From: Acetobacteraceae bacterium
Lineage (GTDB): Bacteria > Pseudomonadota > Alphaproteobacteria > Acetobacterales > Acetobacteraceae
DNA: 64,000 nt
Reading direction: 5' to 3'
Assembly: GCA_965276785.1 (NCBI GenBank)
Contig: OZ255629.1
Coordinates: 3,020,391-3,084,390 of the forward strand
Program-made: the position numbers and the translations under genes
Notes under the pieces: generated by a model
Database searches by the model: none
Seen by the model: the letters and a program-made list of their open reading frames with translations, nothing else
Told to the model about the DNA's origin: nothing
In this document: positions 19,740 through 44,282 of the stretch, piece by piece
Numbering within the stretch: position 1 is the stretch's first letter
Layout of the letters: the number at the start of each line of letters is the position of its first letter

Positions 19740-19845
19740 CGGGTTGCCCCGCCGGATGCGAGCCTTGGCGTCGATCGTCGCCCGCGACACGAGCAGGATT
19801 GTCGTTGGACATGCATGCGCGTCACCACCCATTACCCGTGTCGAC

Positions 19846-19851
19846 TATAAT
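19846..19851 (+). promoter_or_regulatory. Candidate -10 hexamer for the XRE gene
   Basis: A perfect TATAAT lies 40 nt upstream of the ATG at 19891, in the 150-bp divergent HNH/XRE intergenic region. No good -35 hexamer is present at 17-bp spacing. Confidence 0.25.
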
Positions 19852-19890
19852 CGATGTCCCAGCCCACGCCAATCGGTGTCCGTGCTGCGG

Positions 19891-20157
19891 ATGGACCTAT
19901 GTGGACTGGTTGGGCGGAACGTACGGCGTGAACGCCTGGCGGCCAGGATGACCCAAGAGGACTTGGCCCATCGCACCGGATGGGACCGCACCTACATCAG
20001 CGACATTGAGCGCGGCATCCGCAATCCGTCGGTGCGCTTGCTGGAGGATGTCGCCACCGCCCTGGGGCTCCACCCCGCGCTGCTCCTGTTCGAGGAGCAA
20101 GAAGCAGCCATGGTTCGCGCGGCGCTACGGGACACACCGGACAGGGATCCCCCCTAG
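19891..20157 (+). CDS. XRE-family helix-turn-helix transcriptional regulator (88 aa)
   Basis: VGRNVRRERLAARMTQEDLAHRTGWDRTYISDIERGIRNPSVRLLEDVATALG is the canonical Cro/C1 HTH_3 pattern. Confidence 0.88.
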   Translation: MDLCGLVGRNVRRERLAARMTQEDLAHRTGWDRTYISDIERGIRNPSVRLLEDVATALGLHPALLLFEEQEAAMVRAALRDTPDRDPP

Positions 20158-24921: not shown

Positions 24922-25923
24922 TCAGATAATCACCGTCGCGTCGCTCGTCTCCTCCACGAAACCGAAGCAGTATCGGTCCGGACCACTGACCCAGCGCACG
25001 CGGATCACCGGCTCTGCCGGCCATGGGGCGACGATGGCGGCGGCATTGGCCATGAGCTGGCACTCGACGTGTCCAGGATGTTCAGTCGCCTGATACACGC
25101 ACCGCAGAACTCGACCGGCCTCCCTGACGACCCTGTTGGACACCAGGGCCGACGACATGCTCCCGGTCACGCCCGATATCCAGGGCTTGTCGTCGACCAA
25201 CGCCGCCGTCGTCATCCCGGCCCTCCGCAACGCCTTGTGCTCGCCCTCGGTCCAATCCCGTCCCGGGAGGACACCGAGGGATACGAAAAGCCCTTGGTCG
25301 GGCCACGACCGGATCGTCGCCTCAATGAGGCGTCGGCTGGTCCATGCGCCATGGGGGGCGACGCCCAGGACGAACGCGACGCCGCGTCCGAGGATGGCGT
25401 ACAGCAACTCGTCACTCCTTTTCCTGAACCCGCCCTTGCCCGGCGCGTGATCGAGGTGCAGGTGGTGGATCCCCCACTCGTTCAGGAGCAAGTCGAAGTC
25501 CGGTCCGTCCTTCTTGCCGGGCGGATGCAGGCAGTAGCCCTGCTTGACGTCGTGACTGAGGTATCCGTTCACGTCGTCGCCTCGGCTGATGCCGGCGATC
25601 AATGCTTCGATGTCGTCCCGCTTGGCCCGGACTGCGGGCAAGCCATCGAAGCCGACGGCCCTATTTACCTGGCGAGGATGGGGATGGACGAGCCTCGACT
25701 GCCAATTCATGAACCGCCATGCTTGCTCGCCGACGCCCAACGCCGCGAACGCGTCCCGCTCGCGCGTGCTGCGGGTGGGCAGGACGCGCACCATCTCGGT
25801 CCTGAGCCGGTCCAGGTGATCGACGGGTGCAAGGATGTCGGGACACGACGCATTGTCCTCCGATGCGACGCCCATCCTGGATTGTGATCCACAGCCGGTG
25901 GACAGGTTTTCAACCTCCGCCAT
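24922..25923 (-). CDS. Hypothetical protein (~333 aa)
   Basis: The sequence is protein-like (e.g. DLLLNEWGIHHLHLDHAPGKGGFRKRSDELLYAILG) and I recognise no family. The start is uncertain (ATG 25923, or a start codon at 25875). Confidence 0.5.
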   Translation of the reverse strand: MAEVENLSTGCGSQSRMGVASEDNASCPDILAPVDHLDRLRTEMVRVLPTRSTRERDAFAALGVGEQAWRFMNWQSRLVHPHPRQVNRAVGFDGLPAVRAKRDDIEALIAGISRGDDVNGYLSHDVKQGYCLHPPGKKDGPDFDLLLNEWGIHHLHLDHAPGKGGFRKRSDELLYAILGRGVAFVLGVAPHGAWTSRRLIEATIRSWPDQGLFVSLGVLPGRDWTEGEHKALRRAGMTTAALVDDKPWISGVTGSMSSALVSNRVVREAGRVLRCVYQATEHPGHVECQLMANAAAIVAPWPAEPVIRVRWVSGPDRYCFGFVEETSDATVII

Positions 25924-26249
25924 GGACGTGCCGGCAAGGTGGATATGCGAGTGGTGTTTGGCCTCGGTCACAGTTGACCTCCATCGTATGGCTCCCTTGG
26001 GAGCCGGGACCCTACGTCTCACGACGCTGAACATGCCCAGCTTACCTTGGAGTTCGCTGAGTCTCAACGTGGTTGGCGTCGATCAAGCGGCGGCTACGCC
26101 GACCTGGTCGTGACGCAAGAGTTGCCTGGTCGGCCCTCGATCTGGCGCAGGATTTCGGCGGTATCGACTCGTGCCCCGTGTTCCTCTTACGTTCTGAAAT
26201 GCCCAATGCCGTCCCACCCTATGATCGCGCTATCGCACTGGCCTGCACC

Positions 26250-26621: not shown

Positions 26622-28112
26622 TCAGTAGGTGGCTCGCCGCTTGGCACCGGGACGGCCATGCTCGGCCTGGAGCGCAAGCCCTTCGGCCCAGATATCGCGG
26701 CCGAACTGAAGATGGAGGTGCGGAAGATCCGCCAGCGCCCACCCCTCCGGCTCTGAACTGCCGTCACACCGCCAGAACTGCACGGCCCTGAGTGAGACGT
26801 GGTCATCATACGGAGCGACTGCGTTCTCGCTCTGCCACAGCCTGGCGCGGAAGGCGGGCCATCCGGCCGCTGCGACGTATGCTCCGTCACATATCGTCGC
26901 CGCGCCTGGCGTGGGCAGATATCCGCCCGACATGCCCGCCCGCTCCAGTTTGTCGGACGTTAGACAACAGTAGCCGCCTCCGCGCCGGGTGCCGATGCCA
27001 CCCGGCCCGTACCACATCGTTCCGGCAGACCTGAATACGTCCGTGCGGCCGCCGCTGAATGCGGAGTCATCCGGGACGCTGGCTGCGTGCGACAACATCG
27101 GGTCTACGCGGTCGAGTGCGCACCGTGACAGCGCCGCCGACTGGCCGTCGACCAACAGCCCGTCCTGGGCCGCCGGCCCCGGGCAGTGTCCCCGGAGACC
27201 GGGACCGGACGATATCGGGCACGCACCGGCCTGCGTGAGCAAGTCGACCATGTCGAGGATCACGTGGCTGCCGACGATGCGTCCTCGTTCTATGGCGTGG
27301 ATCTCACCGAACCGGAGGCGCACCAAGCCGACCGGCTTCAGTCCCCAGAGCGGGTAGAACATCTCACCCTGGTAGTATCCCGTCGCGGCGATCCAGTCCC
27401 GCCCGCCCAAGCGTCCGCCCATCAGGATGTCGTCGCGACGCGACATCCCCGGCATCGCCTCCTTCAACGGGCGCCAGAACCCGCAGTTGATGTCGTCGTG
27501 GCCGTTGAGCGTCCCGACCGGATGCGAACACGACAAGGTGGCGCCCTCGGCGTAGAGGGCTTGGATGCAATCATCAGCGGCATGGCCGCCGGTCCGCGCG
27601 GCCTCCCGCAACTCCTTGAGGATGCGCCGCTTCACGACCGCGGGTTCATGGTCCTGCATCCTCACCGGCGGCAGGAACCTGGCCCTCGGGTCGTCGTCGT
27701 CCATGCCATCCGCATCGACGGGCACGGCCTCCGCGGCGAGCAGCGATCGATACCCGCGCACTGCGCCCCGCTTCGCGGCGGCGACCAACGTGGCGTGGAA
27801 CGGGTTCCAGGCGGACTCGACGTCGGCTGCACCCAGCAACGCCTCGTACTCGGCCCTCGGAAGCGCGAGGGCTTCATCGACCATTCGCCGCGGGGCGTAG
27901 CGCTGGAGGAACTCGGTCAGTTCCCGCCCATCCGCCGGGCGCCACTTGAATTGCGACAGGTCCCCCTCGTGGATCGCGTGGAGCGCACCGTCGGGTTTCG
28001 GCCATGGATAGCGGTCCCGTCGATGGTCCAGGAGGACCTCGGCTTCTACGGCGTCCGAGATCGCCTCCATCTCCGCCTGCCCGCCCAGCACCTTCGTTCG
28101 ATCTGCTTCCAT
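26622..28112 (-). CDS. Hypothetical protein (497 aa) with two SnoaL/NTF2-like (ester-cyclase-like) modules
   Basis: GYYQGEMFYPLWGLKPVGLVRLRFGEIHAIERGRIVGSHVILDMVDLLTQAG resembles the C-terminal strand pattern of SnoaL-like cyclases. A second, weaker copy occurs near the C-terminus (AVQFWRCDGSSEPEGWALADLPHLHLQFG). Confidence 0.55.
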   Translation of the reverse strand: MEADRTKVLGGQAEMEAISDAVEAEVLLDHRRDRYPWPKPDGALHAIHEGDLSQFKWRPADGRELTEFLQRYAPRRMVDEALALPRAEYEALLGAADVESAWNPFHATLVAAAKRGAVRGYRSLLAAEAVPVDADGMDDDDPRARFLPPVRMQDHEPAVVKRRILKELREAARTGGHAADDCIQALYAEGATLSCSHPVGTLNGHDDINCGFWRPLKEAMPGMSRRDDILMGGRLGGRDWIAATGYYQGEMFYPLWGLKPVGLVRLRFGEIHAIERGRIVGSHVILDMVDLLTQAGACPISSGPGLRGHCPGPAAQDGLLVDGQSAALSRCALDRVDPMLSHAASVPDDSAFSGGRTDVFRSAGTMWYGPGGIGTRRGGGYCCLTSDKLERAGMSGGYLPTPGAATICDGAYVAAAGWPAFRARLWQSENAVAPYDDHVSLRAVQFWRCDGSSEPEGWALADLPHLHLQFGRDIWAEGLALQAEHGRPGAKRRATY

Positions 28113-28426
28113 GGCGGCGTTCCCTCCCGTATGGCGACGTGCCCGAATCAGCACCAATGTTCATGATCTGTGCACGCGGCCCGTGAGATCGATAGCCCCT
28201 TCGTGGGACGGTCTGGCCTGCAGACGGAAGCTGATTGCACCTGCCTCGCCCGGTCTTCTCGTTGCTGTCGCGGATGCCGGCCTAGGGTCCGAGGACCTGC
28301 CCTGACCAGACAACCGCCTCACCAGCCTCCCGTTCGGTCGGCGGGAACCCAGCGGTGGGCACGGGCGCCGCTTCTGCACGGCGGTGCGGGCGGCGAACCA
28401 GGGATCGAAGCGGGGTTGGCCGTAGG

Positions 28427-28633
28427 TCACGTGAACCACGCGAGGACCTCGTCGAAGGACCGGCGCACCACCACCACCCGGCTGCCGGTCAGGTGCATGA
28501 CCGTGGCGTCGCCCGCGTCGTCGGCGTCGGACAGGACCATCACGGCTCCCGCCTTGACCGCATGGCGCAGCCCCTCATCGTCCCGGAGCACGAGGAAGCC
28601 GCCCACGCGCTGGCCCGCGACGATGTCAGCCAT
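28427..28633 (-). CDS. Small hypothetical protein (68 aa)
   Basis: I read the codons by hand and nearly every third position is G/C. It has an ATG start and no recognisable motif. Confidence 0.5.
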   Translation of the reverse strand: MADIVAGQRVGGFLVLRDDEGLRHAVKAGAVMVLSDADDAGDATVMHLTGSRVVVVRRSFDEVLAWFT

Positions 28634-28791
28634 CGCCGCCGCACCCCGACGGGTCTTGATTGATCGATGTCATGGATTCGCCTCCTGATCGGGTCCCTGC
28701 CCGAGGCTCCACAGTTGCGACCTCGTCGATCGGATCGTCGTGCGCGTCGCGGAACCGGACTTGCCAGCCGGTCGCACCGCATTCGCGCCGC

Positions 28792-29520
28792 CTATGAGCG
28801 CCGCAACCAGATCGGCATGCCCGGGACGTTCTTCGCAACGATCCGGACCAGGGTCTTCACCTGCGGGTGCCGCGCGACGTAGTCCCTGACCCAGGTCCCG
28901 CGATGGGGCATGAGCCATGCGAGCGCCGCCTGCCGCCAGGCCGGGTGGGCCGAGAGCGCGTACGCCACGGCCTGCGGGAGCTGCCAGACTCGCCCGTCGC
29001 GCCAATGCTCGAGTTGGGCGGTCAGCACCGCGGTGAGCATCATCGGGTCGCGGTAGACCGGATCCGAGCCATCGATGAGTTCTTGGTAGCGCGCCAGGAG
29101 CGACTCGTACCTGGACGCGGGGTCGTCGTCGAGGTCGGCCATCTGACCCATGGCCTCTTGGAAGCCGTCCATGACGTAGTCGTCGATCGACGTCGCCGGG
29201 AACGGCAATCCCACGATCGGGGGCCGGATGCCCCCGTACCCCGATACTATCCGCAGGAGCGTCACCGGCCTGATCTCGAACAGGTGCGGCAGGTCGGGGT
29301 CCTGCACGGAAGCCCGGTCAAGCGCGGCGGCGCACCGGGCGCGCGCCTCCGGCGGATGGATGCCGGCCAAGCTGATGAGGGCGTTCCGTGGCAGCTCCCA
29401 GACGTCCCCGCGGCGCGCGAAGCGGAACCTCTCGCCGTAGGGCGTCATCAGGGTTCCGGTATCCCTACCGGGTGCGACCGTCCAATTCCCCTTGACCATC
29501 CTGATCTTCCATCGCGGCAT
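28792..29520 (-). CDS. Hypothetical protein (242 aa), divergent partner of the giant helicase gene
   Basis: An internal ATG at 29520 (MPRWKIRMVKGNWTV) sits in track ORF 28792..30213. Third-position G/C is strong from there on, while the upstream part is junk antisense to the helicase gene. Confidence 0.7.
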   Translation of the reverse strand: MPRWKIRMVKGNWTVAPGRDTGTLMTPYGERFRFARRGDVWELPRNALISLAGIHPPEARARCAAALDRASVQDPDLPHLFEIRPVTLLRIVSGYGGIRPPIVGLPFPATSIDDYVMDGFQEAMGQMADLDDDPASRYESLLARYQELIDGSDPVYRDPMMLTAVLTAQLEHWRDGRVWQLPQAVAYALSAHPAWRQAALAWLMPHRGTWVRDYVARHPQVKTLVRIVAKNVPGMPIWLRRS

Positions 29521-29644
29521 CGGACCCTCCCTGGGGGACGCATTCCCCCTTCCGGATGGTCGGTGGCCGACCCCCCACCGGTCGCGGTTGGCCAAGCGCC
29601 CGCGCCATGGTCTGTTGTCGGAACGAAGGAACAGGCGTGGATCG

Positions 29645-32600
29645 ATGACCCAGGACGAACTCGGCGGCAGCGTCGCCGACCAGCACACGCCACCACTGCA
29701 GGCCGTAGCGGACGCAGACCCGGCCGGAGCAAGCCGGCCCGCTACGCCCCGGGCACGGATCACCGCCCGGTTCCAGCCGGCCCTGAACGCGGCGCTATGG
29801 CAGAACCACGTGCCCGTGCTTTCCGAGCTGGCGATCGCCAACGCGAGCGATGAGCCGCTGGGGGACATCGAGATCGAACTCGGTTCACAGCCACCGGTGC
29901 TGCGGGCGCGGACGTGGCGGGCTGCGGGCCTCGCATCCGGCCAGATACTCGCCTTCGACGACCTGGACATCCCCATCGATGGCCCATTCCTGTCGGGCCT
30001 GTCCGAGGCGACCCGCGGCACGGTGTCGCTCACGGCCCGCAGCGGGGGCGAGATCGTCGGCGAGTTCACCCAGGACATCCGCATCCTCGCCTTCAACGAG
30101 TGGGGCGGCACGGCGGGCATCCCCGACATCCTCGCCGCCTTCGTCCAGCCGAACGACCCGGCGGTCGCCCGCATCATCCACGCCGCCTCGGACCTCCTGC
30201 GGGCAAGCGGCAAGCCAGACTCGTTCGAGGGCTACCAGGGCAGCAGCAAGACCCGCGTCTGGGAACAGGCGCAGGCGATCTGGAACGCGGTCTGCCGGAT
30301 GGACCTACGCTACATCAACCCGCCACCATCCTTCGTCGGCGGCGGCCAACGCATCCGCACCGCACGCCAGATCGGCGAGGAGCGGCTGGCGACCTGCCTC
30401 GACTTGGCGGTGCTGTTCTGCTCCTGCCTGGAGGCGGCCGGGCTCCGCCCGCTGATCGTGCTGCAGCGGGAGCACGCATTCGCCGGCGTGTGGCTGTCGA
30501 AGGGCGACTTCGGCACGTCCACCGTGGACGATGCGCCGGGCTTGCGGACCCGGCTCAAGCTCGACGACCTCAAGCTGTTCGAGGCGACCGGCACGACCCA
30601 TGCCCGCAAGCCCAGCTTCCAGCAGGCGACGCTCGCCGGCGCCGCCCATGTCGAGCCTGAGAAGGACGCCGAGTTCGAGGGGCTGATCGACATCCATCGT
30701 GCCCGCCAGCGGCGCATCCTGCCCCTGGCGAGTGCCGCGACCGGCTACGCCTTCCAGGCCGGCGCCATGGACGCGGCCGAACTCGCGCTGCCGGCCATCG
30801 AGGACGCGCCGCCGCTACGCGACGACGTGCCGACGGCCGATGAACCGCCGCCCGCGAGCGCCGAGGATCGGCTCGACCGCTGGCGCAAGCGGCTGCTGGA
30901 CCTTTCCGGCCGCAACCGCCTGCTGAACCTGCCGGCGTCCGGGCGCCAGGTGCTCTGGGTGGACTGCCCGGACGCCGCCAAGCTGGAGGACCGTCTGGCG
31001 GAGATGCGCGGCAAGGCCCGCGCTGCGTCGCTGAAGTTCCGCCCCTGGCCCGACCTGATGGGCGATGCCGACCCACGCAGCGCGGCACTGCACCGCAACC
31101 GGCTGCAGGAGGATGCCAACCTCGCCTTCGCGCGGGACGCCATGGCCAAGGGCGAGCTGGTGGTGGGGCGGGACGAGGCGTCCCTGCAGGCGTCGCTGAC
31201 CGACATCTACCGCAAGGCGCGCGCCGACCAGCAGGAAGGCGGCTCGAACACGCTGTTCCTGACGATCGGGACCTTGCTGTGGCGCCGGGAGGACCGCGAG
31301 ACGCCATACCGGGCGCCGCTGATCCTGGTGCCGGTCGTGCTGGAGCGTCCGAGCGTGCGCTCGGGGTTCGTGCTGCGGGTGCACGATGATGAGACCCGGC
31401 TGAACTCGACGCTGCTCGAGATGCTGCGCCAGGAGTTCGCCCTCCAGTTCCCGACGCTGGAAGCCGAACGGCCGCCGGAGGACGAGGCCGGGTTCGACGT
31501 GCCCGCCATCATGGACACCTTCCGGTCCAAGCTGCGCGACGTCCGTGGCTGGGAGGTCCGGGACGAGGTGGCGCTGACCACCTTGTCGTTCACCAAGTTC
31601 CTGATGTGGAAGGACCTTGCCGACAGGGCTGAGGCGCTGCGCGGCAACGTCGTCTCGCGCCGGCTGATGGATGGGCCGGCACCCGAGGTCGACACAGCGT
31701 CAGGGACTGGCGGCGAGCGCCATCCGATCGGCGGCATGCTGGACGATGAGCTGGCCGCGGCGGACCTGTACTGCCCATTGGAGGGCGACTCGTCGCAGTT
31801 GCGGGCGGTGGCGCGGGCGGCCGCCGGCGAGAGCTTCGTGCTGATCGGGCCGCCCGGCACGGGCAAGAGCCAGACCATCGCCAACATCGTCGCCAACACG
31901 CTGGCCCAGGGCCGGACGGCCCTGTTCGTGGCGGAGAAGCGGGCGGCGCTGGAGGTGGTGCAGCGGCGGCTCAAGAGCGTCGGGATGGCCGATTTCTGCC
32001 TCGACCTGTTCTCCAGCAAGGTCAGCAAGACCGCCGTGCTCGGCCAGCTGGAGCGCGCCCAATCCGTGTCCGAGGCGGATGGCGGACGGGACTGGGCCGC
32101 CGCCAAGGCGGACCTCGCGAGCCTTCGCGAGGAGCTGAACGGGTACGTGCGCGAGCTGCACAAGCCGGGGCGGAACGGTTGGACGCCGTTCCGCGCGATC
32201 GGCGCCGTGCTGCGGGCCGCCGATGGCGGCGTCCCCGAGATCGCACTGGCATGGCCCCACTCCGACGTGCACGACGCCGGGGACTGGCGGCGGCTGGTGG
32301 AGGCGGTCGAGGAAGCGCGGGAGGTGCTGCGCCGGGCCGGCGACGCCGTGCGCATGCCGGCCCTTGCAGGTATCGACCAGGCGGAGTGGTCGCCCGTCTG
32401 GCAGACCCGCCTGCTGGAAGCGGCGCGGCACGCGGCCATGCGACTGGACGAGTTGGAACAGGCGGTCGGCGCCGCCTGCCGAACGCTGAAGCTCGGCGAC
32501 TACGTCCGTTCGCGGCCCAGCTTGCAGCGCTTGGTGGCGCTGGCCGGCCAGTTGACCGACCCGATCGGCCCGGAGGCGGCATGGGCGCTGTCCGAGGACG

Positions 32601-35600
32601 CCGCGGACCTGCACGAGGCGGTCCAGGCAGTGGCCACCCAGGCAAGCCGGCATCGCGAGATACGCCAGGCGCTCACGGGATCATGGCGACCCGGCGTATA
32701 CGCCCTGCCGCTGGCGGCGCTGCGGTCCGACTGGCGCGCGGCCGGCGAGAAGTGGGCGCTGCCGCGGAGCATGGCGCAGCGGGCGGTGCGCAAGCGGCTC
32801 GCGTCCGAGGCGGACGGCCCGGTGCCCGAGGATTGCGGCCCCGACCTCGACCGGCTGCTGGAGATCCAGCAGATCGACGCATCCGTCGCGGCCACCCCGC
32901 ATACGACGGCGCTGGGCCGGGCGTGGCGCGGGATCGACACGGATTTCCTGCGGATGCAGGCGGCCCATGAGTGGGGTCGGCGTATCCGGTCGGCCACGGC
33001 GTCGTGCACGCAGGACGCGGCGGACTTGGCCGGCCTGCGGGCCCTCATCCGCCAGTTGGTCGGCGAGGCGGCCGACCTCCTGGCGCCGTCCGGCTCTGCC
33101 GGGGCCGTCCTGGCTCGCCTGACCGACGCCTGGGTAGTGGCGGAAGCGGCACTGGAGGCCGTGGCGGCGCTCGCTGGCAGCCCGGCCGCTCGCCTGGTGC
33201 CCGAGGACCGGGCGGAATGGCTGGCCGCCTTGTCGCAGCACCTGACTGGATGGTCCGCCGCCGTGCGATCGATCCAGGAGTGGTGCGCTTGGCGCGGGGT
33301 GTCGCAGTCGGCCGAGGCGCAAGGCTTGGGGCCGCTGGTCCGGGCCATGGAAGACGGCATCGTCGCGCCGGGCGATGCGGTCCGCGCGCTGGAGGCGAAC
33401 TACGCCCGCTGGTGGATAGACCTCGCCGTCGATGCGGCACCCAAGCTGCGCGGCTTCGTCGCGGCCCGGCACGAGACGCGTATCGAGCGTTTCCGCATTC
33501 TGGACGCGCGCATGCTGGAGCTGTCCAGCCGGGTCGCCCGCGCCCGGATCGCCGCCGCCATCCCCAACGCGGTGCAGCGCCACGCCGACCCTGAATACGC
33601 TGTGCTCACCCGCGAGCTCGCCAAGCGCCAGCGCCACTTGCCGGTCCGCCAGTTGGCCTCGCGCATGCCGAAGGCGCTGCGCCGGCTGACGCCCTGCCTG
33701 ATGATGAGCCCGCTCTCCGTGGCGCAATACCTGCCGGCGGACGCGGAGCCGTTCGACCTCGTGATCTTCGACGAGGCCTCGCAGATCACGACCTGGGACG
33801 CCATCGGCGCGGTCGGGCGCGGGCGCCAGGTGATCGTCGTGGGCGACCCGCGGCAGCTGCCGCCGACCAGCTTCTTCGAGCGGCGCAGCGGCGAGGAGGA
33901 CGGGGCCGCGGTCGAGGTGGAGACGCACGACCTGGACTCCATCCTCGACGAGTGCCTAGGCGCCGGCATCCAGAACGTCGAACTGACCTGGCACTACCGC
34001 AGCCGGCACGAGAGCCTGATCGCATTCTCGAACCAGGTCTATTACGGCGGCCGCCTGGTCACCTTTCCCTCGCCCGTGACGAGGGATGACGCGGTGTCGT
34101 TCCGTCACGTCGCCGATGGCGTGTATGCCCGGGGCGGCGCGCGCACCAACGAGCGCGAGGCCAGGGCCGTGGTCGCAGAGGCGCTGGCCGTCCTGCGCGC
34201 ACCCGAACCGAAGTCGCTCGGTATCGTCACGTTCAACGCCGAGCAGCAGGGACTGATCGAGGATCTGTTCGACAAGGCGCGGCGCGATGATCCGGCACTC
34301 GAACGGCACTTCGCCGACGAGGCGGCCGAGCCCGTGCTGGTGAAGAACCTCGAAGGGATCCAGGGCGAGGAGCGCGACGTCATGCTGTTCTCGCTCACCT
34401 ACGGCCCGGACGCGACGGGACGCATCGCGCTAAACTTCGGGCCGCTCAACCTATCGGGCGGCGAGCGCCGGCTCAACGTCGCCGTGACCCGGGCGCGCGA
34501 GCGGTTGGTCGTGTTCGGCAGCGTGCGGGCGGAGCAGTTGGACCTGTCGCGCACGGGCGCGGTGGGCGTGCGACACCTCAAGCAATTTCTATCCTTCGCC
34601 GAGCACGGCGCGCGGTCGTTCGCCACGGCCGATCGGGGCTCCCTGGGTGATCACGAGAGCCCGTTCGAGGCGGAGGTGGCCGAACGGCTCCGCCGGCTGG
34701 GATGGACGGCGCACCCGCAGGTCGGCGTGTCGGGCTTCCGCGTCGATCTCGGCATCGTCGATCCGGATGCGCCGGGGGCCTACCTCGCCGGCGTCGAGTG
34801 CGACGGCGCCACCTACCACCGCGGCGCCACCGCGCGGGACCGCGACCGGCTGCGACAGCACGTGCTCGAGGCGCTCGGCTGGCGCATCCTGCGCGTGTGG
34901 TCGACCGACTGGTGGACCAACGCCGCCCGGGAGGCGGACAGGCTGCACGCGCAGCTCGGCGACGCGCTGGGAAGGGCGTGCGCCATGAGGGCCGAGAGGG
35001 CCGAGCCGACGGGCGCACCGCCTGACGCGGGCGACCCGCTACTCAATGGAACCGAGACGCTGGACGACGGCGGAGCGGTGTTGCCGCCCCTGGACGCCGA
35101 TCTCATGCCTCATGACGACGCGGGGCCGGTGCCAGAGCCTGACCTCTTCTACGATCCCGCCTACCGGGATCGCCTGGGTGCGCTTGTCGCGGAGCTGTTG
35201 CGTAAGCAGGGGCCGTTGCGAGAGGACCGGCTGGTCCAGGCCGTTGCCCGCCTACACGGCTTCGGCCGGGCCGGCCGCGAGATCAGGGATCGGGTGATGG
35301 CCGTCCTGCCGGACACCAGCGCGGTCACGACCGAGGACATCGGCCGCTTCGTCTGGCCGCCGGGCATCGATCCCGCTTCCTGGGACGACTTCCGTTCACC
35401 GGTTGTCGGTCGTGCTGTCGATCCGGCGGAGATACCGATGCCGGAGCTGGTCGCATTGGCCCGGCGCTGCATGATGCCCGGCATGACGGATGACACCATC
35501 CTTATCGCGATGCGCGATGCCTGCGGCCTACAACGGCTACGCGAGACCGTCCGGAACCGCTGTGTCGCGGCGCTCGCGGCTGGGCGGGGCCAAGCTAACC

Positions 35601-35605
35601 CCTGA
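29645..35605 (+). CDS. Giant (~1,986 aa) SF1 (Upf1/Dna2-like) helicase. It has an N-terminal transglutaminase-like region, a DUF4011-like region, a Vsr/DUF559-like endonuclease domain and a DUF3320-like C-terminus.
   Basis: ATG at 29645. The TGase-like pattern is ATCLDLAVLF...GLRPLIVLQREHAFAGVW (Cys codon 30395-30397, His codon 30473-30475). Also LLDLSGRNRLLNL, Walker A GPPGTGKS (31847-31870), DEASQ (33770-33784), VVGDPRQLPP and NVAVTRARE. The nuclease-like block is FEAEVAERL...VDLGIVD...GVECDGATYH...RVWSTDWW (34661-34915). Confidence 0.9.
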   Translation: MTQDELGGSVADQHTPPLQAVADADPAGASRPATPRARITARFQPALNAALWQNHVPVLSELAIANASDEPLGDIEIELGSQPPVLRARTWRAAGLASGQILAFDDLDIPIDGPFLSGLSEATRGTVSLTARSGGEIVGEFTQDIRILAFNEWGGTAGIPDILAAFVQPNDPAVARIIHAASDLLRASGKPDSFEGYQGSSKTRVWEQAQAIWNAVCRMDLRYINPPPSFVGGGQRIRTARQIGEERLATCLDLAVLFCSCLEAAGLRPLIVLQREHAFAGVWLSKGDFGTSTVDDAPGLRTRLKLDDLKLFEATGTTHARKPSFQQATLAGAAHVEPEKDAEFEGLIDIHRARQRRILPLASAATGYAFQAGAMDAAELALPAIEDAPPLRDDVPTADEPPPASAEDRLDRWRKRLLDLSGRNRLLNLPASGRQVLWVDCPDAAKLEDRLAEMRGKARAASLKFRPWPDLMGDADPRSAALHRNRLQEDANLAFARDAMAKGELVVGRDEASLQASLTDIYRKARADQQEGGSNTLFLTIGTLLWRREDRETPYRAPLILVPVVLERPSVRSGFVLRVHDDETRLNSTLLEMLRQEFALQFPTLEAERPPEDEAGFDVPAIMDTFRSKLRDVRGWEVRDEVALTTLSFTKFLMWKDLADRAEALRGNVVSRRLMDGPAPEVDTASGTGGERHPIGGMLDDELAAADLYCPLEGDSSQLRAVARAAAGESFVLIGPPGTGKSQTIANIVANTLAQGRTALFVAEKRAALEVVQRRLKSVGMADFCLDLFSSKVSKTAVLGQLERAQSVSEADGGRDWAAAKADLASLREELNGYVRELHKPGRNGWTPFRAIGAVLRAADGGVPEIALAWPHSDVHDAGDWRRLVEAVEEAREVLRRAGDAVRMPALAGIDQAEWSPVWQTRLLEAARHAAMRLDELEQAVGAACRTLKLGDYVRSRPSLQRLVALAGQLTDPIGPEAAWALSEDAADLHEAVQAVATQASRHREIRQALTGSWRPGVYALPLAALRSDWRAAGEKWALPRSMAQRAVRKRLASEADGPVPEDCGPDLDRLLEIQQIDASVAATPHTTALGRAWRGIDTDFLRMQAAHEWGRRIRSATASCTQDAADLAGLRALIRQLVGEAADLLAPSGSAGAVLARLTDAWVVAEAALEAVAALAGSPAARLVPEDRAEWLAALSQHLTGWSAAVRSIQEWCAWRGVSQSAEAQGLGPLVRAMEDGIVAPGDAVRALEANYARWWIDLAVDAAPKLRGFVAARHETRIERFRILDARMLELSSRVARARIAAAIPNAVQRHADPEYAVLTRELAKRQRHLPVRQLASRMPKALRRLTPCLMMSPLSVAQYLPADAEPFDLVIFDEASQITTWDAIGAVGRGRQVIVVGDPRQLPPTSFFERRSGEEDGAAVEVETHDLDSILDECLGAGIQNVELTWHYRSRHESLIAFSNQVYYGGRLVTFPSPVTRDDAVSFRHVADGVYARGGARTNEREARAVVAEALAVLRAPEPKSLGIVTFNAEQQGLIEDLFDKARRDDPALERHFADEAAEPVLVKNLEGIQGEERDVMLFSLTYGPDATGRIALNFGPLNLSGGERRLNVAVTRARERLVVFGSVRAEQLDLSRTGAVGVRHLKQFLSFAEHGARSFATADRGSLGDHESPFEAEVAERLRRLGWTAHPQVGVSGFRVDLGIVDPDAPGAYLAGVECDGATYHRGATARDRDRLRQHVLEALGWRILRVWSTDWWTNAAREADRLHAQLGDALGRACAMRAERAEPTGAPPDAGDPLLNGTETLDDGGAVLPPLDADLMPHDDAGPVPEPDLFYDPAYRDRLGALVAELLRKQGPLREDRLVQAVARLHGFGRAGREIRDRVMAVLPDTSAVTTEDIGRFVWPPGIDPASWDDFRSPVVGRAVDPAEIPMPELVALARRCMMPGMTDDTILIAMRDACGLQRLRETVRNRCVAALAAGRGQANP

Positions 35606-35682: not shown

Positions 35683-36351
35683 TCATCCTGGCAGACTGGG
35701 AGGACCGCTCCGGGGACCCGACACGTATGCCACGTCGAACCCGTCCGCGCCTTCCGGACCGAGCAACGACAATGGATCCACGTCCAGATCCAGCCACGTC
35801 GACCAGTCCGCCCAGGCCAGCACGACCGGGGCGCGATCGTGGTAGGCGTTCGACGCCGAGCCGGCCGGCTGCGTCACGATGGTGAAGCTCTCGACCTCGC
35901 CGACATCCGTCGTGGTGCAGCGGTCCCACAGGCCGGCGAGGCAGATCGGCGGATCGCCCTTGGGCGTGAACAGCCACTTGGCCTTCTGGCCCTTGGCGCC
36001 CGTCCACTCGTACCAGCCCTCCGCCGGCACGAGGCAGCGGCGGCGTTTGAAGCTGTCCCTGAAGGTGCGGCTGGTGGAGACCGTCTCGGACCGGGCGTTG
36101 AACGTCGCCAACTTGAAGTCTTTCAGGGCGCCCTCGTGCCACCATGGCACCAGCCACCAGCGCGCTTGCACCATCTCCACCCCGTCGTCGCGGCGGCGGA
36201 AGATGGGCGATCGGTCCGTGGGGCGCACCTCGGCGCGCGGCTCAAGGTTGGGCGCGTCGTGGGGTTCCGGGAAGCGCAGCGGCAGCCGCGTCTTGCTGAA
36301 TTCCTCGACGTAGGCCCGGTACGCCTTCTGGCGCTGGTAGTTGGAGCACAT
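35683..36351 (-). CDS. SOS-response-associated peptidase (SRAP / YedK family, abasic-site crosslinking protein)
   Basis: The start is MCSNY, so the catalytic Cys is residue 2. The family pattern is ...FNARSETV...FRDSFKRRRCLVPAEGWYEW...HDRAPVVL. Confidence 0.9.
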   Translation of the reverse strand: MCSNYQRQKAYRAYVEEFSKTRLPLRFPEPHDAPNLEPRAEVRPTDRSPIFRRRDDGVEMVQARWWLVPWWHEGALKDFKLATFNARSETVSTSRTFRDSFKRRRCLVPAEGWYEWTGAKGQKAKWLFTPKGDPPICLAGLWDRCTTTDVGEVESFTIVTQPAGSASNAYHDRAPVVLAWADWSTWLDLDVDPLSLLGPEGADGFDVAYVSGPRSGPPSLPG

Positions 36352-36652
36352 GGCGGGATCATAGCGCGACGGGCAGCTGGAGCGAGTAGGCGGAGGTGCA
36401 AGCCGGGGCGCCGGCGCGATGAGCGGCCGGCGCGAGCGCGTCTCCACGTAGCGAGGCGGCCGGCACCACGTGGTCGCGGTCCTGCACCTAGCGCACCATC
36501 GAGATCGTCTGCGCCCGCCCGCTACATCCTTGGCGCTGGGGCGCAACCCGCCCGACCGATGCCAGCTCGGCGGCGGTCGACCGGCCCTCCCCTGCCGACC
36601 AGCGTGAGAAGTGGCCAGCCGCTCGACTGTCTGGCAGCCGGCGGGCTGATTG

Positions 36653-36985
36653 CCGGTTCGGCTGATCGAACCGGTTCACAGAAGCGGACCGCTACGGCCG
36701 CGATCTGGCAACCCATTGTGCCTGCTTCGATTCCTTCCAGCGGACATCCGTCCTGCTTGCACCAGGTCCCTGAACCAGCGTGGACCGAAGACGGTCGGCC
36801 GGTTCAGTGACCTGGTTCAGACTTGGCCATGCTGGTCCACGCTCTGGATCGGCATAGTACATTGATTCATACATTATATCTGAGAGTGGCGCTGGGTCGG
36901 GCCAACAACTGGAGCGCTGAACTGGTTCATCGAACAAGGAGCAATATCAACGAGTTGAGCCCTGATGAACCGGTTGGATGGTTCA
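36653..36985. repeat. Cluster of iteron-like 8-mers CYGGTTCA in a non-coding region
   Basis: Exact copies are at 36671-78(+), 36771-78(-), 36799-806(+), 36812-19(+), 36922-29(+) and 36966-73(-). One-mismatch copies are at 36653-60, 36978-85 and 37032-39. A 10-bp palindrome GAACCGGTTC is at 36668-77. A visibly AT-richer stretch follows (about 36850-37300). Confidence 0.8.
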
Positions 36986-37484
36986 AGGATACCTACAGGG
37001 TGTCGCTGGAGCCGCAGAGCCGATTCTTCGGCTGGTTGGCCGCAACCACCACTGGGTAACAAGGATGATCCTGACCGCTAACAATGCTCAGCAACGCTGG
37101 CTCGATTGTATGAACGATTTCAACTTACTAGGGGCTAGAAGAAGGGACCGCTCTCGTCGTGGTTCCGGTCCAAGTGAAGCACTGGAAGTTGTTAGTGAAG
37201 GTGATCTGCGGCGATAGCTATCCTATTGCCACCAGTGACTTAGCATGCTCATGAATACTTCGAGCTTCACATATCAGTCTTTTCGGCGCGCTGAGTCGTA
37301 ACAACGGGCGTGAATGACATCGCGTCGGTCGACGCGAACACTTCGCCTGGCTCAGGGCACGTGTGATGGCGGAAGCGAGCGGCGGTGCTGACGGCAAGCA
37401 TCGACGCCGTTGGCGCGATGGAGTGGAGCGGGTCTCGCGGCAACGGCGACAGACCTCGGGGACGAGACGGACCTCGAAGCCCGT

Positions 37485-40400
37485 TCAATGGGTCCGCTGC
37501 CGCTGGAGTTCCTCGCTCGCGAGCCGCTCCGTCATGAGCGGGCACCCGTGCGATCGGTATGGGCATGCTGAACAGCCGCAGCAGAAGTCCGTGGCGGCCC
37601 TGGCCAAGGGTGGTGCCGCGGCCTGACCCTCCAGAGCCTCCTCGAGGAAGTGCTTGCTGAACGGGTAGACGCGAAGGTTCTTGCCCCACAGCCGCCTTCG
37701 ATAGCCCGGCTCGCCAGGGGCCAGGATATCCCGCAGGCGCAGCATGCGCCCGACCCATTCCGGCTGCTGCGACTCGGGGATGTCCGTCGTGCTGGACTGA
37801 CCGTAGTTGGCGTCGACCAGTCGCTTCATCTCGAGGATGACGTGCGTCGGGGAGATCTCGGCATATCCCTCCCTGGCCAGGGTCGTGGCGGCCTCCTGGA
37901 GCACCTCGCCGGGGTCGTCGGGGTTGAAGGCGGCGCCGCGGGTCCTGGACAACGCCACCTCCAGGAAGGCGCCGTGGCCAGGGTTCGAGGAGAGGCGGGC
38001 CAGCACCCGCAGCGGCGCGGCGATCTCCTCGGACCGCTCCGACGCAGACGGGCACACGTCCGCATACGTGGCGGCGATGTCGGCCACGTGGTCGAACGTC
38101 CATGCGTGCAGCTCGTCCCGGAGGCCCTGCAGCCGCTCGGCCGCTGCCGGCACCAGGGCGCGCCGCGCTTCCGCCTGGCTGGGCGGCATCTTCCGCGTCT
38201 GCACCCGGATCATGCGCGTGCCAAGGATGGTGTCGACGCCGGTTGTGTTGTTGACGACCTTGATGCCGAAGCCGTTCAGCCGCTCGACCTTGAAGTTCTT
38301 CGAGGCATCGACCCAGATCTTGGTCGCGGTGTCCCGGTTGTACGAGACCTTGAGCCACTGGACGAGCTCGCCGAAGCGGTTGCCGTCCTTGCCGGCCTTC
38401 GCGCCGTTGATCGACTCCAGGTCGTCGAGCACGGCCAATCCCCGCGTCTCGTGGATCAGCCTGGCCGCGGCCGGCGCGCTCACTTGCCCCACGATGGTGC
38501 CGTTCGCGGACAGCTGCGACATCACAATGCCGGCCGTGGACTTCCCCGATCCCGCCTCGCCCGAGAGCAGCAGCAGCGGCAAGGCCTGAAACACCGCCTG
38601 GCAGTAGCTCGCGGCCGCCGTCAGTGCGAGGACCGCGTAGTCCTCCTCGTAGGGCAGCCAGATCGCCGCGCGGAACGCCTGCAGGACGTCCTCCACCATG
38701 TCGCCGAACGGGCGGTGTTCGATCTGGTCTCCACGCTTCTTGGCCGCGAGCCAGCCCTCGATCGAGGGCCATGACCAGCTGGGTTGGGCCGGGGCCTTGG
38801 GCAGGCCGTCGATCAGCGTGCCGTCGGACAGTCGGAGGACCCGCTTGTCCGACGGGGTCCCTTCGGCGACGGCATCTCGACGGCGTGCAGCTGCTGCCCG
38901 TCGGACCTGACCACAACCGTCTCGACGTGCTCGACCCTGGTGGCCTTCCCCTCCTTGTCGATCTCGATCCCGACCACGAGCGTGTCGACCGGGTAGTACA
39001 GGTTGCCCTTGTGGAAGGCTCGGCCGATGTCGAGCGGGCGGTAGGCCTTGCGGCCCAGGCCGTCGGCGTCCCCGGGCTTGATGTCGTCCTCGATCTCGGT
39101 CGCCTCGGCGAGGGCGGCGAGTAGGTCGGCGGCCGTGGCGCCGCCGGCGAACGCGTCGCGCCATGTCGTCGCCGGCGGCGGCAAGCGGTGCACCGGCTTG
39201 CCCGCGGAACGGTGCACCAGCCGGGCGATGCGGTCGCCCCGCGCGTCGGCCGCGGTCGCGACGTAGATCGCGTCCCAGGAATCCCAGAACGCCGGTGACG
39301 ACCACTCCTTCGGCACCGCCTCGATGCCCGTAGAGGCGATCACCTGGGCCGACAGGCCGTCTCCGGCGCCCCGAACCTCCTGCCACGTGCGCCATAGGTC
39401 CGGCATGTCGCACACGATGACGGCGGGGGACGGCCCGGCCGAAGCGTGGAAGGTGGACTCCTCCTTCGCCGACGACCAGCAGGCGGCCTTGGGGTTCCGG
39501 GTCACGCCGGGGACGTCCGCCTTGCAGAAGACCGCCAGCTGGGTGCCGTCGGGCGCGCGCAACGGGAAGGTCAGCGCATCGGAATAGATCAGCCCGGTCT
39601 TCGGGCTCTCGTAAGGCTTGTCCAATCCGAAGCCGAAGTGGTCCAACGTCTGCTGCACCAGCCCGCCCGTGACGGTGAGCCATTCCATGGCCGCGGCGTT
39701 GTCCCGGAGACGCTTGCGCCGGCTGCCCTGTGCCTCGAGGTTGGCGGCCCTCCTGCGCTCCTCCTTGGCGGCTTCCAGCTTGGCCAAGTCGCGGGGGTTC
39801 GATATCCCGAAGTCGAGGCCGGATTTGATGGTCGCGTTCGCCTCTTGCAGCGGCAGGCCGCAGCCCACGGCGGCCTGGGCGAGGCGTTGCGCGGCCGTGG
39901 CCCGGTCAAGGGATCCGGCGCCGACCAGTCCACCGATCTTCACCGCCGCCTTGTTCAGCGTGTCATTCCGCGAGCCCTCGCTGGCCCTCAGGACAGTCAG
40001 AACCTCACCGTTCAGCGCCGCGGCGGCGTACGCGGAGGCGTCCGCGGCCGGATCGAACCGGATGGGCGCCGAGGGTGACGCCGACGGGACGGCGGTAGCG
40101 TCCATGGCCTCGTACAGCCAGGCCGGGGCGGGCGCCGTCGTGATCTCCTTGGGCGCCCGCCCCGGGGCCCATTCATATGCCCGGCCCGACGCGTGCCGTG
40201 ACGGCGGCGCCACGGCGCCGCCGCCTTCCGCCCGGACGTCCAGCCCAGGGGCGATCTTCGCCACGCTGTTCCGGACCGTACGGCCTTCGGGGTAGGCGAA
40301 GTAGATATGGCGGCCGCCCCCGCCCGTCTTGCACTCCACCGTGTCGGGCAACGCTCCGCGGCAGGCGACCAGCGCGGCGAGGGAGACTTCGCCCGCCGTA

Positions 40401-40681
40401 CCGTCGACGTCGAGCACCCAGACCCCGCTCCCGGCCCCGGTGGCGATGCCGACGTTCCCCGATTGCCGAAATGCGGCTCCTATGGCGTCGGCGCAGGCGG
40501 TGGCGTCCTTGAAGCCGTGCTCGGCGCGCGGGTGTTTCCCGGGGTTCCGGCAGTCAGCCTTGCCGCACGCGCAGCCGCCCGCCTCCGTGACGCCGTGGAC
40601 GAGGACCACCCGCCAGCCCAACTCGCCATAGGCCGCCGCCGCGGCGGCGGATGGGTTATGCACCCCCTCCTGACAAGGCAC
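37485..40681 (-). pseudogene. Prim-Pol / P4-type primase-helicase-like replicase with its reading frame interrupted near 38,873-38,884
   Basis: The N-terminal frame (38813..40681, GTG start) has a bifunctional primase-polymerase pattern (GWRVVLVHG...GKHPR...GVWVLDVDG...GGGRHIYF). The C-terminal frame (37485..~38873) carries the P-loop LLLSGEAGSGKST. The protein-like sequence switches frame at ...DGQQLHA / VAEGTPSDKRVLRL. The second frame has no nearby start codon. Confidence 0.75.
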
Positions 40682-40682
40682 C

Positions 40683-42767: not shown

Positions 42768-42883
42768 CTCGAATTCCCGCACGTCGGCCCGTGACGCCAC
42801 CCATCGGTTGCGCCCGGTCCCCGGGTTGACTAGGTTCGAGACAGGTCCCGGGTCCACTCGGAATCCTCTCTCGCCTAGGGATG

Positions 42884-42917
42884 CAACGGGCGCCGGCTGC
42901 CAGGCCGGCGCCCGTTG
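42884..42917. terminator. Strong GC-rich hairpin (14-bp perfect stem, 6-nt loop) between the AlpA-like gene and the large recombinase gene
   Basis: caacgggcgccggc-tgccag-gccggcgcccgttg, checked base by base. A T-rich tail is present only on the + strand, so its function (attenuator, terminator or protein site) is unclear. Confidence 0.35.
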
Positions 42918-43041
42918 TTGCTTGTGTCCGCCCTACGGGGCGTTGATGCGTTCACATGCTAGGTCTGCCTTCGCGGCAGGGCCGCCATGGGGGTGGGCCA
43001 CATCGGTGGATCGAGCACGACGCGGCCTTGCGGCATCGCCA

Positions 43042-43293
43042 TCACGTTGACGCCCCGTCGCGGGGAGCGGCCGGCGGCGTTTGTCCCCGGTCGTCGATCC
43101 ACGCCGCCAGCTCGGTTGAACGCCAGTAGTTGCGCTTGTTGATGGTGAGCGGCCGGGGGAAGCGGAGCGCGGAGTCGTTGCGCCAGCGCCAGAGCGCCAT
43201 CGCGGAGATCCGGCCCAACCGAGCCCGGACCTGACCGCTGTTGAGCAGCAATCCTCCGTCTTCGGGATCATCGGACGCGACCTCCAACACCAT
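43042..43293 (-). CDS. AlpA-family phage regulatory / excisionase-like HTH protein (83 aa)
   Basis: LLNSGQVRARLGRISAMALWRWRNDSALRFPRPLTINKRNYWRSTELAAWID is the typical AlpA/Phage_AlpA pattern. Confidence 0.85.
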   Translation of the reverse strand: MVLEVASDDPEDGGLLLNSGQVRARLGRISAMALWRWRNDSALRFPRPLTINKRNYWRSTELAAWIDDRGQTPPAAPRDGAST

Positions 43294-43681
43294 GCGTATC
43301 CCCCTGCGATCGACGACACCGTGATGCCGCGTTCAGTCTCGTTCGATCTGGATACCCCTGTCCGGTTGCACCGGGGAGTTCGAAGGGTGGCGTCTATGTT
43401 CTGCCTGGCAAAACCTCGCTGCGACGTTTTGCCTTCCGGTCGCACCCGAGCTCATTGCAGCAGCGATGCCCCATCGACGTCACACGCTTGCGCCTTGGCT
43501 GGTGCGGACCTCGGTTGACGCCGGATGGCGGATCGCTGCGCTGGGCTAGTCCCCGCGGCAGGCCGGAGACCGCGCCAACCCAACCTGGCAGTGCGAGGGT
43601 GTTCCGATCACCGTCGGCGTCCCAATGGGCTCGAACCTGCGCACCGCATGGTGCAGGATGCACGCAAGCGATCGCGCTCCT

Positions 43682-44281: not shown

Positions 44282-44282
44282 G

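Follow-up and report, generated by a model that had tools for sequence, protein, structure and literature searches.

The stretch of DNA analysed here (64,000 nucleotides of an Acetobacteraceae contig, hereafter the window) carries a very large helicase-nuclease gene with a small gene divergently oriented from it, and the question raised by this locus is whether both genes form an undescribed two-component system, as the initial annotation had proposed, or whether the large protein belongs to a known family and acts by itself. The large gene is a single intact ORF on the forward strand, encoding 1,986 aa from an ATG at 29645 to a stop at 35605; a mechanical call had placed its start at a TTG at position 29492. 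The small gene encodes 242 aa on the reverse strand (28792-29520), and a spacer of 124 bp (29521-29644) separates it from the large one. Both ORFs showed a composition typical of coding sequences, with GC1/2/3 values of 0.74/0.51/0.90 for the large one and 0.67/0.49/0.89 for the small one.

The five-region architecture that had been read into the large polypeptide was confirmed by Pfam matches, structural models and the translation itself. The domain order found was a beta-sandwich, a transglutaminase-like core, DUF4011, a split SF1 helicase, a Vsr-like nuclease and DUF3320, and the same layout was seen across the 107 aligned full-length homologues over which motif conservation was scored. Matches above the Pfam gathering score were obtained for DUF4011 (PF13195, 138.8 bits; aa 416-594, positions 30890-31426), for AAA_11/AAA_12 of the SF1 helicases (around aa 716-776 and 1366-1626), for REase_MTES_1575 (PF18741, 120.9 bits; aa 1674-1771, positions 34664-34957) and for DUF3320 (PF11784, 40.4 bits; aa 1833-1882, positions 35141-35290), the last of these regions having been assigned to the winged helix-turn-helix (wHTH) fold (PMC3710099). 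The nuclease is a restriction-endonuclease-like domain of the Vsr fold, and the DUF559 and Vsr models themselves matched it weakly.

The N-terminal part of helicase domain 1A, with the Walker A motif, lies at positions 31790-31972 (Pfam AAA_11, AAA_19 and AAA_30; IGHMBP2 in the PDB), and motifs II to VI, of the SF1B type of Upf1, Sen1 and DNA2, lie at positions 33740-34522 (AAA_11 and AAA_12; Sen1, Upf1 and DNA2 in the PDB). Of the helicase cores with known structure, those of Upf1, Sen1, IGHMBP2 and DNA2 are nearest in sequence (E from 1e-8 to 1e-5). The gap between the two AAA_11 stretches corresponds to an insertion of about 560-590 aa between motifs I and II (positions 32042-33724), which splits the helicase with largely uncharacterised sequence. 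In a class of homologues of about 2,200 aa, this region is longer by 58 and 154 aa (mapped in P0111), and at least one of these mid-helicase insertions shows the same W-x-G-x-x-T-D/Q motif. Neither the insertion of about 590 aa nor the beta-sandwich (aa 37-147) had been recorded in the initial annotation.

All the motifs quoted previously for this protein were located. The Walker A sequence GPPGTGKS (aa 735-742) was invariant among the homologues, and near-invariance across the 107 sequences was found for DEASQ (aa 1376-1380), GDPRQLPP (aa 1400-1407) and VTRARE (aa 1614-1619) in the helicase, for VDLGIVD (aa 1700-1706), ECDGATYH (aa 1718-1725) and RVWSTDWW (aa 1750-1757) in the nuclease, and for ATCLDLAVLF (aa 249-258) and REHAFAGVW (aa 275-283) in the N-terminal core; QGEERD was also present among helicase motifs II to VI. 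The core residues of the helicase motifs were kept in 105-107 of the 107 homologues, and D1701, E1718, D1720, H1725 and D1755 of the nuclease in 106-107. Walker A, DEAS and helicase motifs III and VI are all intact, as is the D...ExD...H...D signature of the nuclease.

When the protein was compared with curated families, it scored 2108.1 bits against NCBIfam NF058533 ('anti-phage protein ProA', an equivalog model with a cut-off of 1500), and the alignment covered aa 48-1964 and profile positions 1-1903 of 1903, that is, end to end. The likeness includes the domain order, with the beta-sandwich/transglutaminase-like module, and the stand-alone character of the gene, and nothing substantive differs. 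This model was also passed, at 2147-2371 bits, by one metagenome protein and by homologues found in P. aeruginosa, Burkholderia and Acetobacter; the P. aeruginosa/Burkholderia class is about 235 aa longer and is the one that carries the 58- and 154-aa insertions. In PADLOC, the protein matched PDC-S37 (profile PDLC05009, 1209.4 bits; profile positions 6-1532 of 1550 against aa 406-1979), a single-gene phage-defence candidate. The similarity to PDC-S37 spans DUF4011, helicase, nuclease and tail, but this model of 1,550 positions begins after the N-terminal 405 aa and lacks the beta-sandwich and the transglutaminase-like module.

Judged from its sequence, the 1,986-aa protein is a full-length member of the already catalogued ProA family. 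The claim that the system was undescribed is contradicted by PDC-S37, by NF058533 and by an architecture reported in 2013 for MTES_1575 (PMC3710099), all of which already cover this family; the locus adds another copy to a widespread and curated family, in which a 96%-identical protein was already public. The main value of the result is negative, in that a candidate undescribed two-component system should be dropped. As no paper defining the name ProA was found in the literature, the antiphage label rests on NCBI curation and on the 'candidate' status in PADLOC.

Among experimentally studied systems, Hhe (Gao et al. 2020) likewise carries DUF4011, an SF1 helicase of the Upf1 type and a nuclease of the Vsr type on one chain, and it constitutes a single-gene defence system that is abolished by mutation of the nuclease site: it protects against lambda, T3, T7 and PhiV-1, and this protection is lost in the E1731A nuclease mutant (bioRxiv 10.1101/2022.06.16.496414). 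The match to Hhe in PADLOC (PDLC02194, 567 bits) was limited to aa 1263-1760, and the NCBIfam model of Hhe (NF042953, cut-off 2000) was missed with 802.5 bits, its best stretch being aa 1196-1768. Because the score lies below the cut-off and the best match does not extend beyond the C-terminal part, the protein is considered a paralogue of Hhe and not Hhe itself. The gene at 29645-35605 likely encodes a stand-alone, horizontally mobile antiphage helicase-nuclease of the ProA family, made of a single polypeptide and paralogous to Hhe.

A further relative is MTES_1575 of Microbacterium testaceum, for which a transglutaminase domain, an SF1 helicase, a Vsr-family REase and a wHTH were described (Anantharaman et al. 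2013, PMC3710099). The helicase, the REase (a novel Vsr-family member) and the wHTH overlapping DUF3320 are common to both proteins, and the transglutaminase corresponds to the transglutaminase-like core of the 1,986-aa protein. MTES_1575 was reported with an added HEPN domain (SWT1/Abi2), whereas no HEPN family of Pfam matched the 1,986-aa protein at E <= 0.1. A conserved RGFVAAxHE sequence (aa 1269-1277) formally fits the Rx4-6H pattern and sits in the helicase region common to Hhe. The Pfam family REase_MTES_1575 takes its name from the M. testaceum protein. In the case of the SF1B helicases Upf1, Sen1, IGHMBP2 and DNA2, the likeness is restricted to the motor domains; DNA2 also joins a nuclease to an SF1B motor, but its nuclease is of the PD-(D/E)XK-FeS type instead of Vsr, and its position and all the accessory domains differ from those of the present protein.

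The putative partnership with the 242-aa protein was assessed by co-occurrence over 75 ProA loci, with flanks that reached 8 kb wherever contigs were long enough, and by a homologue search among 5.8 billion proteins. The 242-aa gene was present in a single one of the 75 loci (L003), in which ProA is 96% identical at the amino acid level and the DNA about 94% identical; as this is the same island, L003 does not count as an independent observation. The other 74 loci carried no homologue of the 242-aa protein, even where the ProA genes themselves were 84-89% identical in DNA. The whole search yielded two homologues, neither of them adjoining a ProA gene; their neighbours were an S1/P1-nuclease-like gene and their own tandem paralogues, the latter at the L001 locus. 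No match to the 242-aa protein was found in Pfam, PADLOC, NCBIfam or PHROGs.

The DNA upstream of the large gene pointed in the same direction. Homology by blastn to loci L004, L005, L008, L010 and L030 started at positions 29579-29588, so that in relatives at 84-89% DNA identity the shared DNA comprises the ORF and about 60 bp upstream, the 242-aa gene lying outside. The proposal that the 242-aa protein, alone or together with the product of the 68-aa ORF, partners the helicase-nuclease through a shared divergent promoter found some backing in the orientation of both genes around a 124-bp spacer, in the coding-type composition of the small ORF and in the conservation of the pair in L003. Against it stand the identity of the L003 island with that of the window, the lack of the gene at the other 74 ProA loci, the location of both homologues away from ProA, the end of DNA homology about 60 bp before the start codon of ProA, short of the 242-aa gene, and the listing of the helicase as a single-gene candidate in PADLOC, and such a two-component system is now extremely improbable. 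The linkage suggested for the 68-aa ORF did not hold either. This ORF and a 511-aa gene were found, among the 75 loci, only in L003, had no counterpart at the L001 locus and gave no match in Pfam, PADLOC, NCBIfam or PHROGs, and a module shared with either of them was rejected on the basis of this distribution. Moreover, no flanking family recurred in more than 8 of the 75 loci, and the recurrences detected reflected genus synteny. The 242-aa, 68-aa and 511-aa upstream genes are unrelated, strain-specific cargo; that the 242-aa ORFan family represents a new immunity or anti-defence cassette merely adjoining ProA is a lesser possibility.

The leader of about 60 bp (29585-29644, forward strand; blastn against relatives, alignment A4) is also conserved ahead of ProA genes whose upstream neighbours differ, and it probably carries ProA's own promoter and ribosome binding site. 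No sigma-70 consensus was found in the spacer, and scans for promoter and terminator consensus sequences in the spacer and the 3' flank gave nothing above shuffled sequences. A sigma-54-like reading of the conserved leader was rejected for its wrong spacing, and so was a short ORF located upstream that overlaps the start codon of ProA and was not conserved in relatives.

The N-terminal region is the part of ProA that PDC-S37 does not cover. An AlphaFold model of residues 1-450, as had been recommended, revealed ahead of the core a beta-sandwich domain (aa 37-147, positions 29753-30085) with pLDDT above 90, for which Foldseek returned matches to beta-sandwich domains of GH2 enzymes and of eukaryotic transglutaminases. 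With the whole 450-aa model these matches dominated and the search was uninformative on the core, and Foldseek was repeated on the core alone (model of aa 150-365, pLDDT 91.9 and pTM 0.90). Nearly all top matches in the PDB then had a transglutaminase fold, but they were weak (E of about 1e-2, TM 0.28-0.35); PNGase, BDI_1141, TglA, 3isr, PeiP, Rad4/XPC and menin were among them, and the rest of the top matches were axonemal microtubule-doublet chains. In Pfam, Transglut_core (PF01841) fell below its gathering score (15.1 bits vs. 23, E 0.028). When 52 N-terminal fragments were searched, the sole recurrent families were Transglut_core (17/52) and DUF553 (28/52), always below threshold (best E 3.7e-4 and 9.3e-4, respectively), and the N-terminal alignment, used as a profile against PDB sequences, found no match. 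Convergent but weak evidence supports the assignment of the core (aa 160-355, positions 30122-30709) as transglutaminase-like.

In this core, Cys251, Asp253 and His277 were invariant in the 52 N-terminal sequences, a set that reaches down to about 30% identity and several phyla, and Asp296 and Glu/Asp313 were each kept in 51, the third residue of the predicted Cys-His-acid triad being either Asp296 or Glu313. The objection that the Cys and His might vary falls away, since both are conserved. In the model, Cys251 begins a helix and His277 begins a strand, an arrangement shared with active members of the fold. The module is widespread, with 3,983 cluster representatives at 50% identity, and in the best 150 of these 3,983 it was N-terminal, mostly in proteins of about 1,950-2,200 aa; shorter proteins bearing it are probably fragments. 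At the family level, interest remains in this N-terminal module, with a putative catalytic triad that appears invariant across phyla.

In the mechanism that we propose for ProA, the DUF4011 and DUF3320 (wHTH) regions would load the protein onto foreign DNA, the Upf1-like SF1B motor would translocate 5' to 3' with ATP, and the Vsr-fold nuclease would nick or cut the DNA and abort phage replication, by analogy with the nuclease point mutant of Hhe. Judging only from the Vsr and wHTH domains, the target would be DNA and not RNA. The transglutaminase-like domain, probably a catalytically active thiol enzyme (peptidase, isopeptidase or transamidase), could then serve as a sensing or gating module whose substrate would be either a phage protein or ProA itself. 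A more specific version, which we put forward only tentatively, is that an active thiol peptidase/transamidase domain licenses the helicase-nuclease once it has recognised or processed a phage protein, or once ProA has processed itself. If true, ProA would be a protease-gated, single-chain immune sensor of the helicase-nuclease type, a mechanism for which no description was found in the literature, nor was any published function for the beta-sandwich plus transglutaminase-like module; the substrate of this module would explain how single-chain helicase-nucleases discriminate foreign from self DNA.

Two rival readings of function have to be weighed against an antiphage enzyme with a catalytic N-terminal domain. 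The N-terminal domain could be a non-catalytic scaffold for binding nucleic acids or proteins, as in Rad4/XPC and menin, inactive folds that appear among the Foldseek matches, and the subthreshold scores of the Pfam transglutaminase models would also fit. Inactive homologues of this fold normally lose the catalytic residues, whereas here Cys251 and His277 are kept in every sequence down to about 30% identity and in several phyla, positions 296 and 313 are each acidic in 51/52, and the Cys and His are placed as in active members, making a scaffold unlikely.

The second alternative concerns the whole protein, since ProA-type enzymes could be housekeeping helicase-nucleases of DNA repair or replication conflicts, or general factors against plasmids and mobile elements. 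Relatives with roles in repair and quality control exist for the Vsr and DNA2/Upf1-like modules, and in 4 loci rpmA or obg lies no more than 8 kb from ProA, rpmA being 11.9 kb away in the window. In P. aeruginosa, a large DUF4011 gene that flanks hotspot cDHS1 is present in every isolate (PMC10250203); this core gene probably belongs to the ProA family, a P. aeruginosa protein of this type passes the ProA model, and presence in every isolate is unusual for defence, thus leaving room for a role in housekeeping or genome maintenance. In the Acetobacteraceae window, no tRNA was detected, and no convincing att-like direct repeats were found for a downstream integrative element (35.4-47.4 kb). The mobile-island setting suggested initially was borne out, with integrases, PrimPol, SRAP, a PD-T4-7-like gene and a STAND NTPase near ProA. 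These mobile and defence-like surroundings, the highly variable neighbourhoods of ProA among loci, the 69 plasmid records with a full-length homologue, the naming of the family as anti-phage in NCBIfam and as a defence candidate in PADLOC, and the experimental defence by its paralogue Hhe all speak against the housekeeping reading, which is improbable, and a role in defence is the best reading of ProA.

The giant gene of the window, where GC content ranges from 63 to 74% (2-kb windows), is a single ORF that opens with ATG 29645 and ends with the stop codon at 35605 (+ strand; 1,986 aa), the mechanical ORF starting further upstream at TTG 29492. Its GC1/2/3 values of 0.74/0.51/0.90 match the codon-position profile that genuine genes of the genome have. 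The motif strings that the initial annotation had quoted for the protein were all found and are near-invariant among 107 full-length homologues, and ORF, motifs and Pfam domains together confirmed a single helicase-nuclease polypeptide.

The protein reached 2108 bits (aa 48-1964 vs. profile 1-1903) against the NCBIfam equivalog NF058533, 'anti-phage protein ProA', which has a cut-off of 1500 bits, and 802 bits, below the cut-off of 2000 bits, against the model of Hhe, a known single-gene defence helicase-nuclease. In PADLOC, the known single-gene candidate PDC-S37 was returned with 1209 bits over aa 406-1979, its model lacking the N-terminal module that ProA has, and the Hhe model scored 567 bits over aa 1263-1760 only. 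From these scores, the window protein can be assigned to ProA, a paralogue of Hhe. The ProA model was also passed by homologues of P. aeruginosa (2,221 aa), B. pseudomallei and Acetobacter, and by the metagenome protein P0110; no publication naming ProA was found in the literature searched. The gene had been put forward as a candidate for an undescribed system, but with NF058533 and PDC-S37 the family is already curated, known and widespread, and the window gene is an ordinary member of it.

Four regions exceeded the Pfam gathering score: DUF4011 (aa 416-594), a split SF1 helicase (AAA_11/AAA_12; aa ~716-776 and 1366-1626), REase_MTES_1575 (aa 1674-1771) and DUF3320 (aa 1833-1882). As the solved cores closest by sequence are Sen1, IGHMBP2, Upf1 and DNA2, the helicase was placed in the Upf1-like SF1B group. 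Helicase motifs I and II are separated by a ~590-aa insert (window 32042-33724), and in the 2,200-aa class of P. aeruginosa and Burkholderia two insertions, of 58 and 154 aa, lengthen the mid-helicase region (aa 1005-1287 of P0111, a full-length homologue). By eye, one stretch of the ~590-aa insert and the 154-aa P0111 insertion both show a W-x-G-x-x-T-D/Q motif. A conserved RGFVAAxHExRIExFR motif (aa 1269-1284; window 33449-33496), in the helicase insert common to ProA and Hhe, is formally compatible with the HEPN Rx4-6H pattern; the ProA protein gave no HEPN family match, and a HEPN domain has been reported for the Microbacterium testaceum protein MTES_1575 (PMC3710099).

Residues 1-450 were modelled with AlphaFold on 48 homologues (mean pLDDT 83.7), revealing ~30 disordered residues followed by a beta-sandwich (aa 37-147) and an alpha/beta domain (aa 160-355). 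Beta-sandwich matches dominated the Foldseek search with this entire model, so aa 150-365 were modelled separately (pLDDT 91.9, pTM 0.90). Nearly every top PDB match of this region was a protein of the transglutaminase fold (PNGase, BDI_1141, TglA, 3isr, PeiP, Rad4/XPC and menin), with weak scores (E ~1e-2, TM 0.28-0.35). Pfam transglutaminase models matched the N-terminus below threshold, the sole recurrent families in 52 N-terminal fragments from diverse phyla being DUF553 (28/52) and Transglut_core (17/52), again sub-threshold, and a profile search of PDB sequences with this region gave no match. When conservation was counted in 52 N-terminal sequences, with identity down to ~30%, Cys251, Asp253 and His277 were present in all 52, Asp296 in 51, and Glu or Asp at position 313 in 51, inside an F-[ED]-x-[TS] motif similar to the transglutaminase 'DPT' motif. 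In the model, Cys251 lies at a helix start and His277 at a strand start, as in active members of the fold. These individually weak lines converge in support of a transglutaminase/papain-like fold, and the initial call of such a domain appears right: its Cys and His are invariant, whereas loss of their conservation had been named in advance as refuting it. The module was present in ~4,000 cluster representatives, and was N-terminal in all of the best 150 of these.

The 242-aa ORF (28792-29520, - strand), separated from the ProA ATG by 124 bp on the opposite strand, had been proposed as the partner of the helicase in a two-component module. Its GC1/2/3 (0.67/0.49/0.89) follows the real-gene pattern of the genome, and its product had no match in Pfam, PADLOC, NCBIfam or PHROGs. 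Only two homologues (44% and 39% identity) were found in 5.8 billion proteins, making a family of three members: one on a 1.3-kb contig adjoining an S1/P1-nuclease-like gene, the other on a 119-kb contig amid its own tandem paralogues and with no helicase nearby. A locus with a homologue (L001, 7883-10690) carries a tandem array of a 528-aa two-copy protein and then a 229-aa copy, with a transposase close by; immunity and anti-defence cassettes typically contain such tandem paralogues. The 511-aa (26622-28157, -) and 68-80-aa (28427-28669, -) ORFs share the orientation of the 242-aa gene and likewise had no match in the four databases.

Scanning 185,579 species genomes yielded 75 ProA loci, in which tblastn detected the 242-aa, 68-aa, 511-aa, SRAP and PrimPol genes in L003 only, whose ProA is 96% identical (aa) to that of the window and which is evidently the same island. 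Four loci with ProA DNA 84-89% identical (L004, L005, L008 and L010) lacked all five genes; their homology to the window starts at 29579-29588, ~60 bp 5' of the ProA ATG, and stops at 34994-35590 depending on the locus, the limit in L004, L005 and L010 (35580-35590) being just short of the stop codon. In all-against-all clustering of flanking ORFs, no family occurred in more than 8 of the 75 loci, and the recurrent ones reflected Gluconobacter or Methylobacterium synteny. ProA therefore forms a unit by itself, consisting of the gene and a short leader of its own, and the 242-aa gene is an unlinked ORFan; absence of linkage in other genomes is what the initial annotation had said would refute its two-component proposal. 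The initial interpretation is only partly supported: it stood in its architecture and transglutaminase-like call and fell in its novelty and its partner. The ~60-bp leader (29585-29644), TTGGCCAAGCGCCC...CATGGT(T/C)TG.TG...AAC...GGA, is kept 5' of ProA genes whose upstream neighbours are unrelated; no sigma-70 consensus was detected in it, and a promoter or a regulatory site is a candidate role for it.

ProA has no partner gene and resides on mobile elements; its N-terminal thiol-enzyme-like domain is conserved, its tails are of DNA-binding type, and the motifs of its SF1B ATPase/helicase and Vsr-fold nuclease are intact. ProA would load onto foreign DNA and translocate 5'->3', driven by ATP, and its Vsr-type nuclease would nick or cleave DNA as in Hhe, for which a preprint reports activity against lambda, T3, T7 and PhiV-1 that the nuclease mutation E1731A abolishes (10.1101/2022.06.16.496414). 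The transglutaminase-like domain may contribute a catalytic sensing or gating step. In a rival reading, this fold would be a non-catalytic scaffold; the invariant triad, which is probably functional, counts against it. In another, less likely than defence, ProA would have a genome-maintenance role, as suggested by a P. aeruginosa DUF4011 gene that is a core gene (PMC10250203) and probably that of P0111.

Upstream of ProA lie ORFans, TetR, GFA and methyltransferase genes and, at ~3.5 kb, a PD-T4-7-like gene (24925-26082, -; 386 aa; PADLOC PD-T4-7 model, 104.5 bits, E 1.3e-30), a probable second defence gene. Three large co-oriented genes at 6173-14784 (+) could be another defence module: a 557-aa protein that carries a VPA1262-N domain (103 bits) and matches PDC-S05 weakly, a 586-aa ORFan, and a 1,736-aa STAND/NACHT-like NTPase (9577-14784) with weak PDC-M54A matches. 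A 241-aa protein (18845-19567, -; phrog_4652, 149 bits) adjoining an HTH_3 regulator (19726-20154) is a phage-derived remnant in the island.

Downstream follow SRAP (35686-36546), PrimPol (38816-40702), a 749-aa integrase-like gene (40686-42932), a 96-aa excisionase-like gene, a P4-type integrase (44286-45677) and, from ~47.2 kb, rplU-rpmA-obg. As these core genes follow ProA within ~400 bp in L008 (13792-16776), an ~11-kb integrative element (35686-46000), made up of the genes from SRAP to the P4-type integrase, sits between them in the window, where neither a tRNA nor convincing att repeats for the element were found. Full-length homologues occur on 69 plasmid records. In the window, rpmA/obg (47488-48840) are 11.9 kb from ProA; rpmA or obg lie ≤8 kb from it in L008, L038, L055 and L027, of different lineages (two uncultured proteobacterial/Acetobacteraceae MAGs, Kaistia and Longimicrobiales). 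In P. aeruginosa, a large DUF4011 gene flanks the defence hotspot cDHS1 (PMC10250203), and ProA may mark an integration hotspot. The homologue of L010, an Acetobacteraceae MAG (88-93% DNA identity to the window), carries a ~1.5-kb insertion (L010 10621-12134, equivalent to window ~32280), probably an inactivating IS element. L003 (CAXTRP010000001.1) is a MAG labelled 'uncultured Caulobacteraceae', and the other close ProA relatives are all Acetobacteraceae; its DNA identity to the window is 93-94% across the stretch that the 511-aa gene and SRAP delimit, both included, and 81-89% in PrimPol and the integrase-like gene, which suggests mis-binning or recent transfer.
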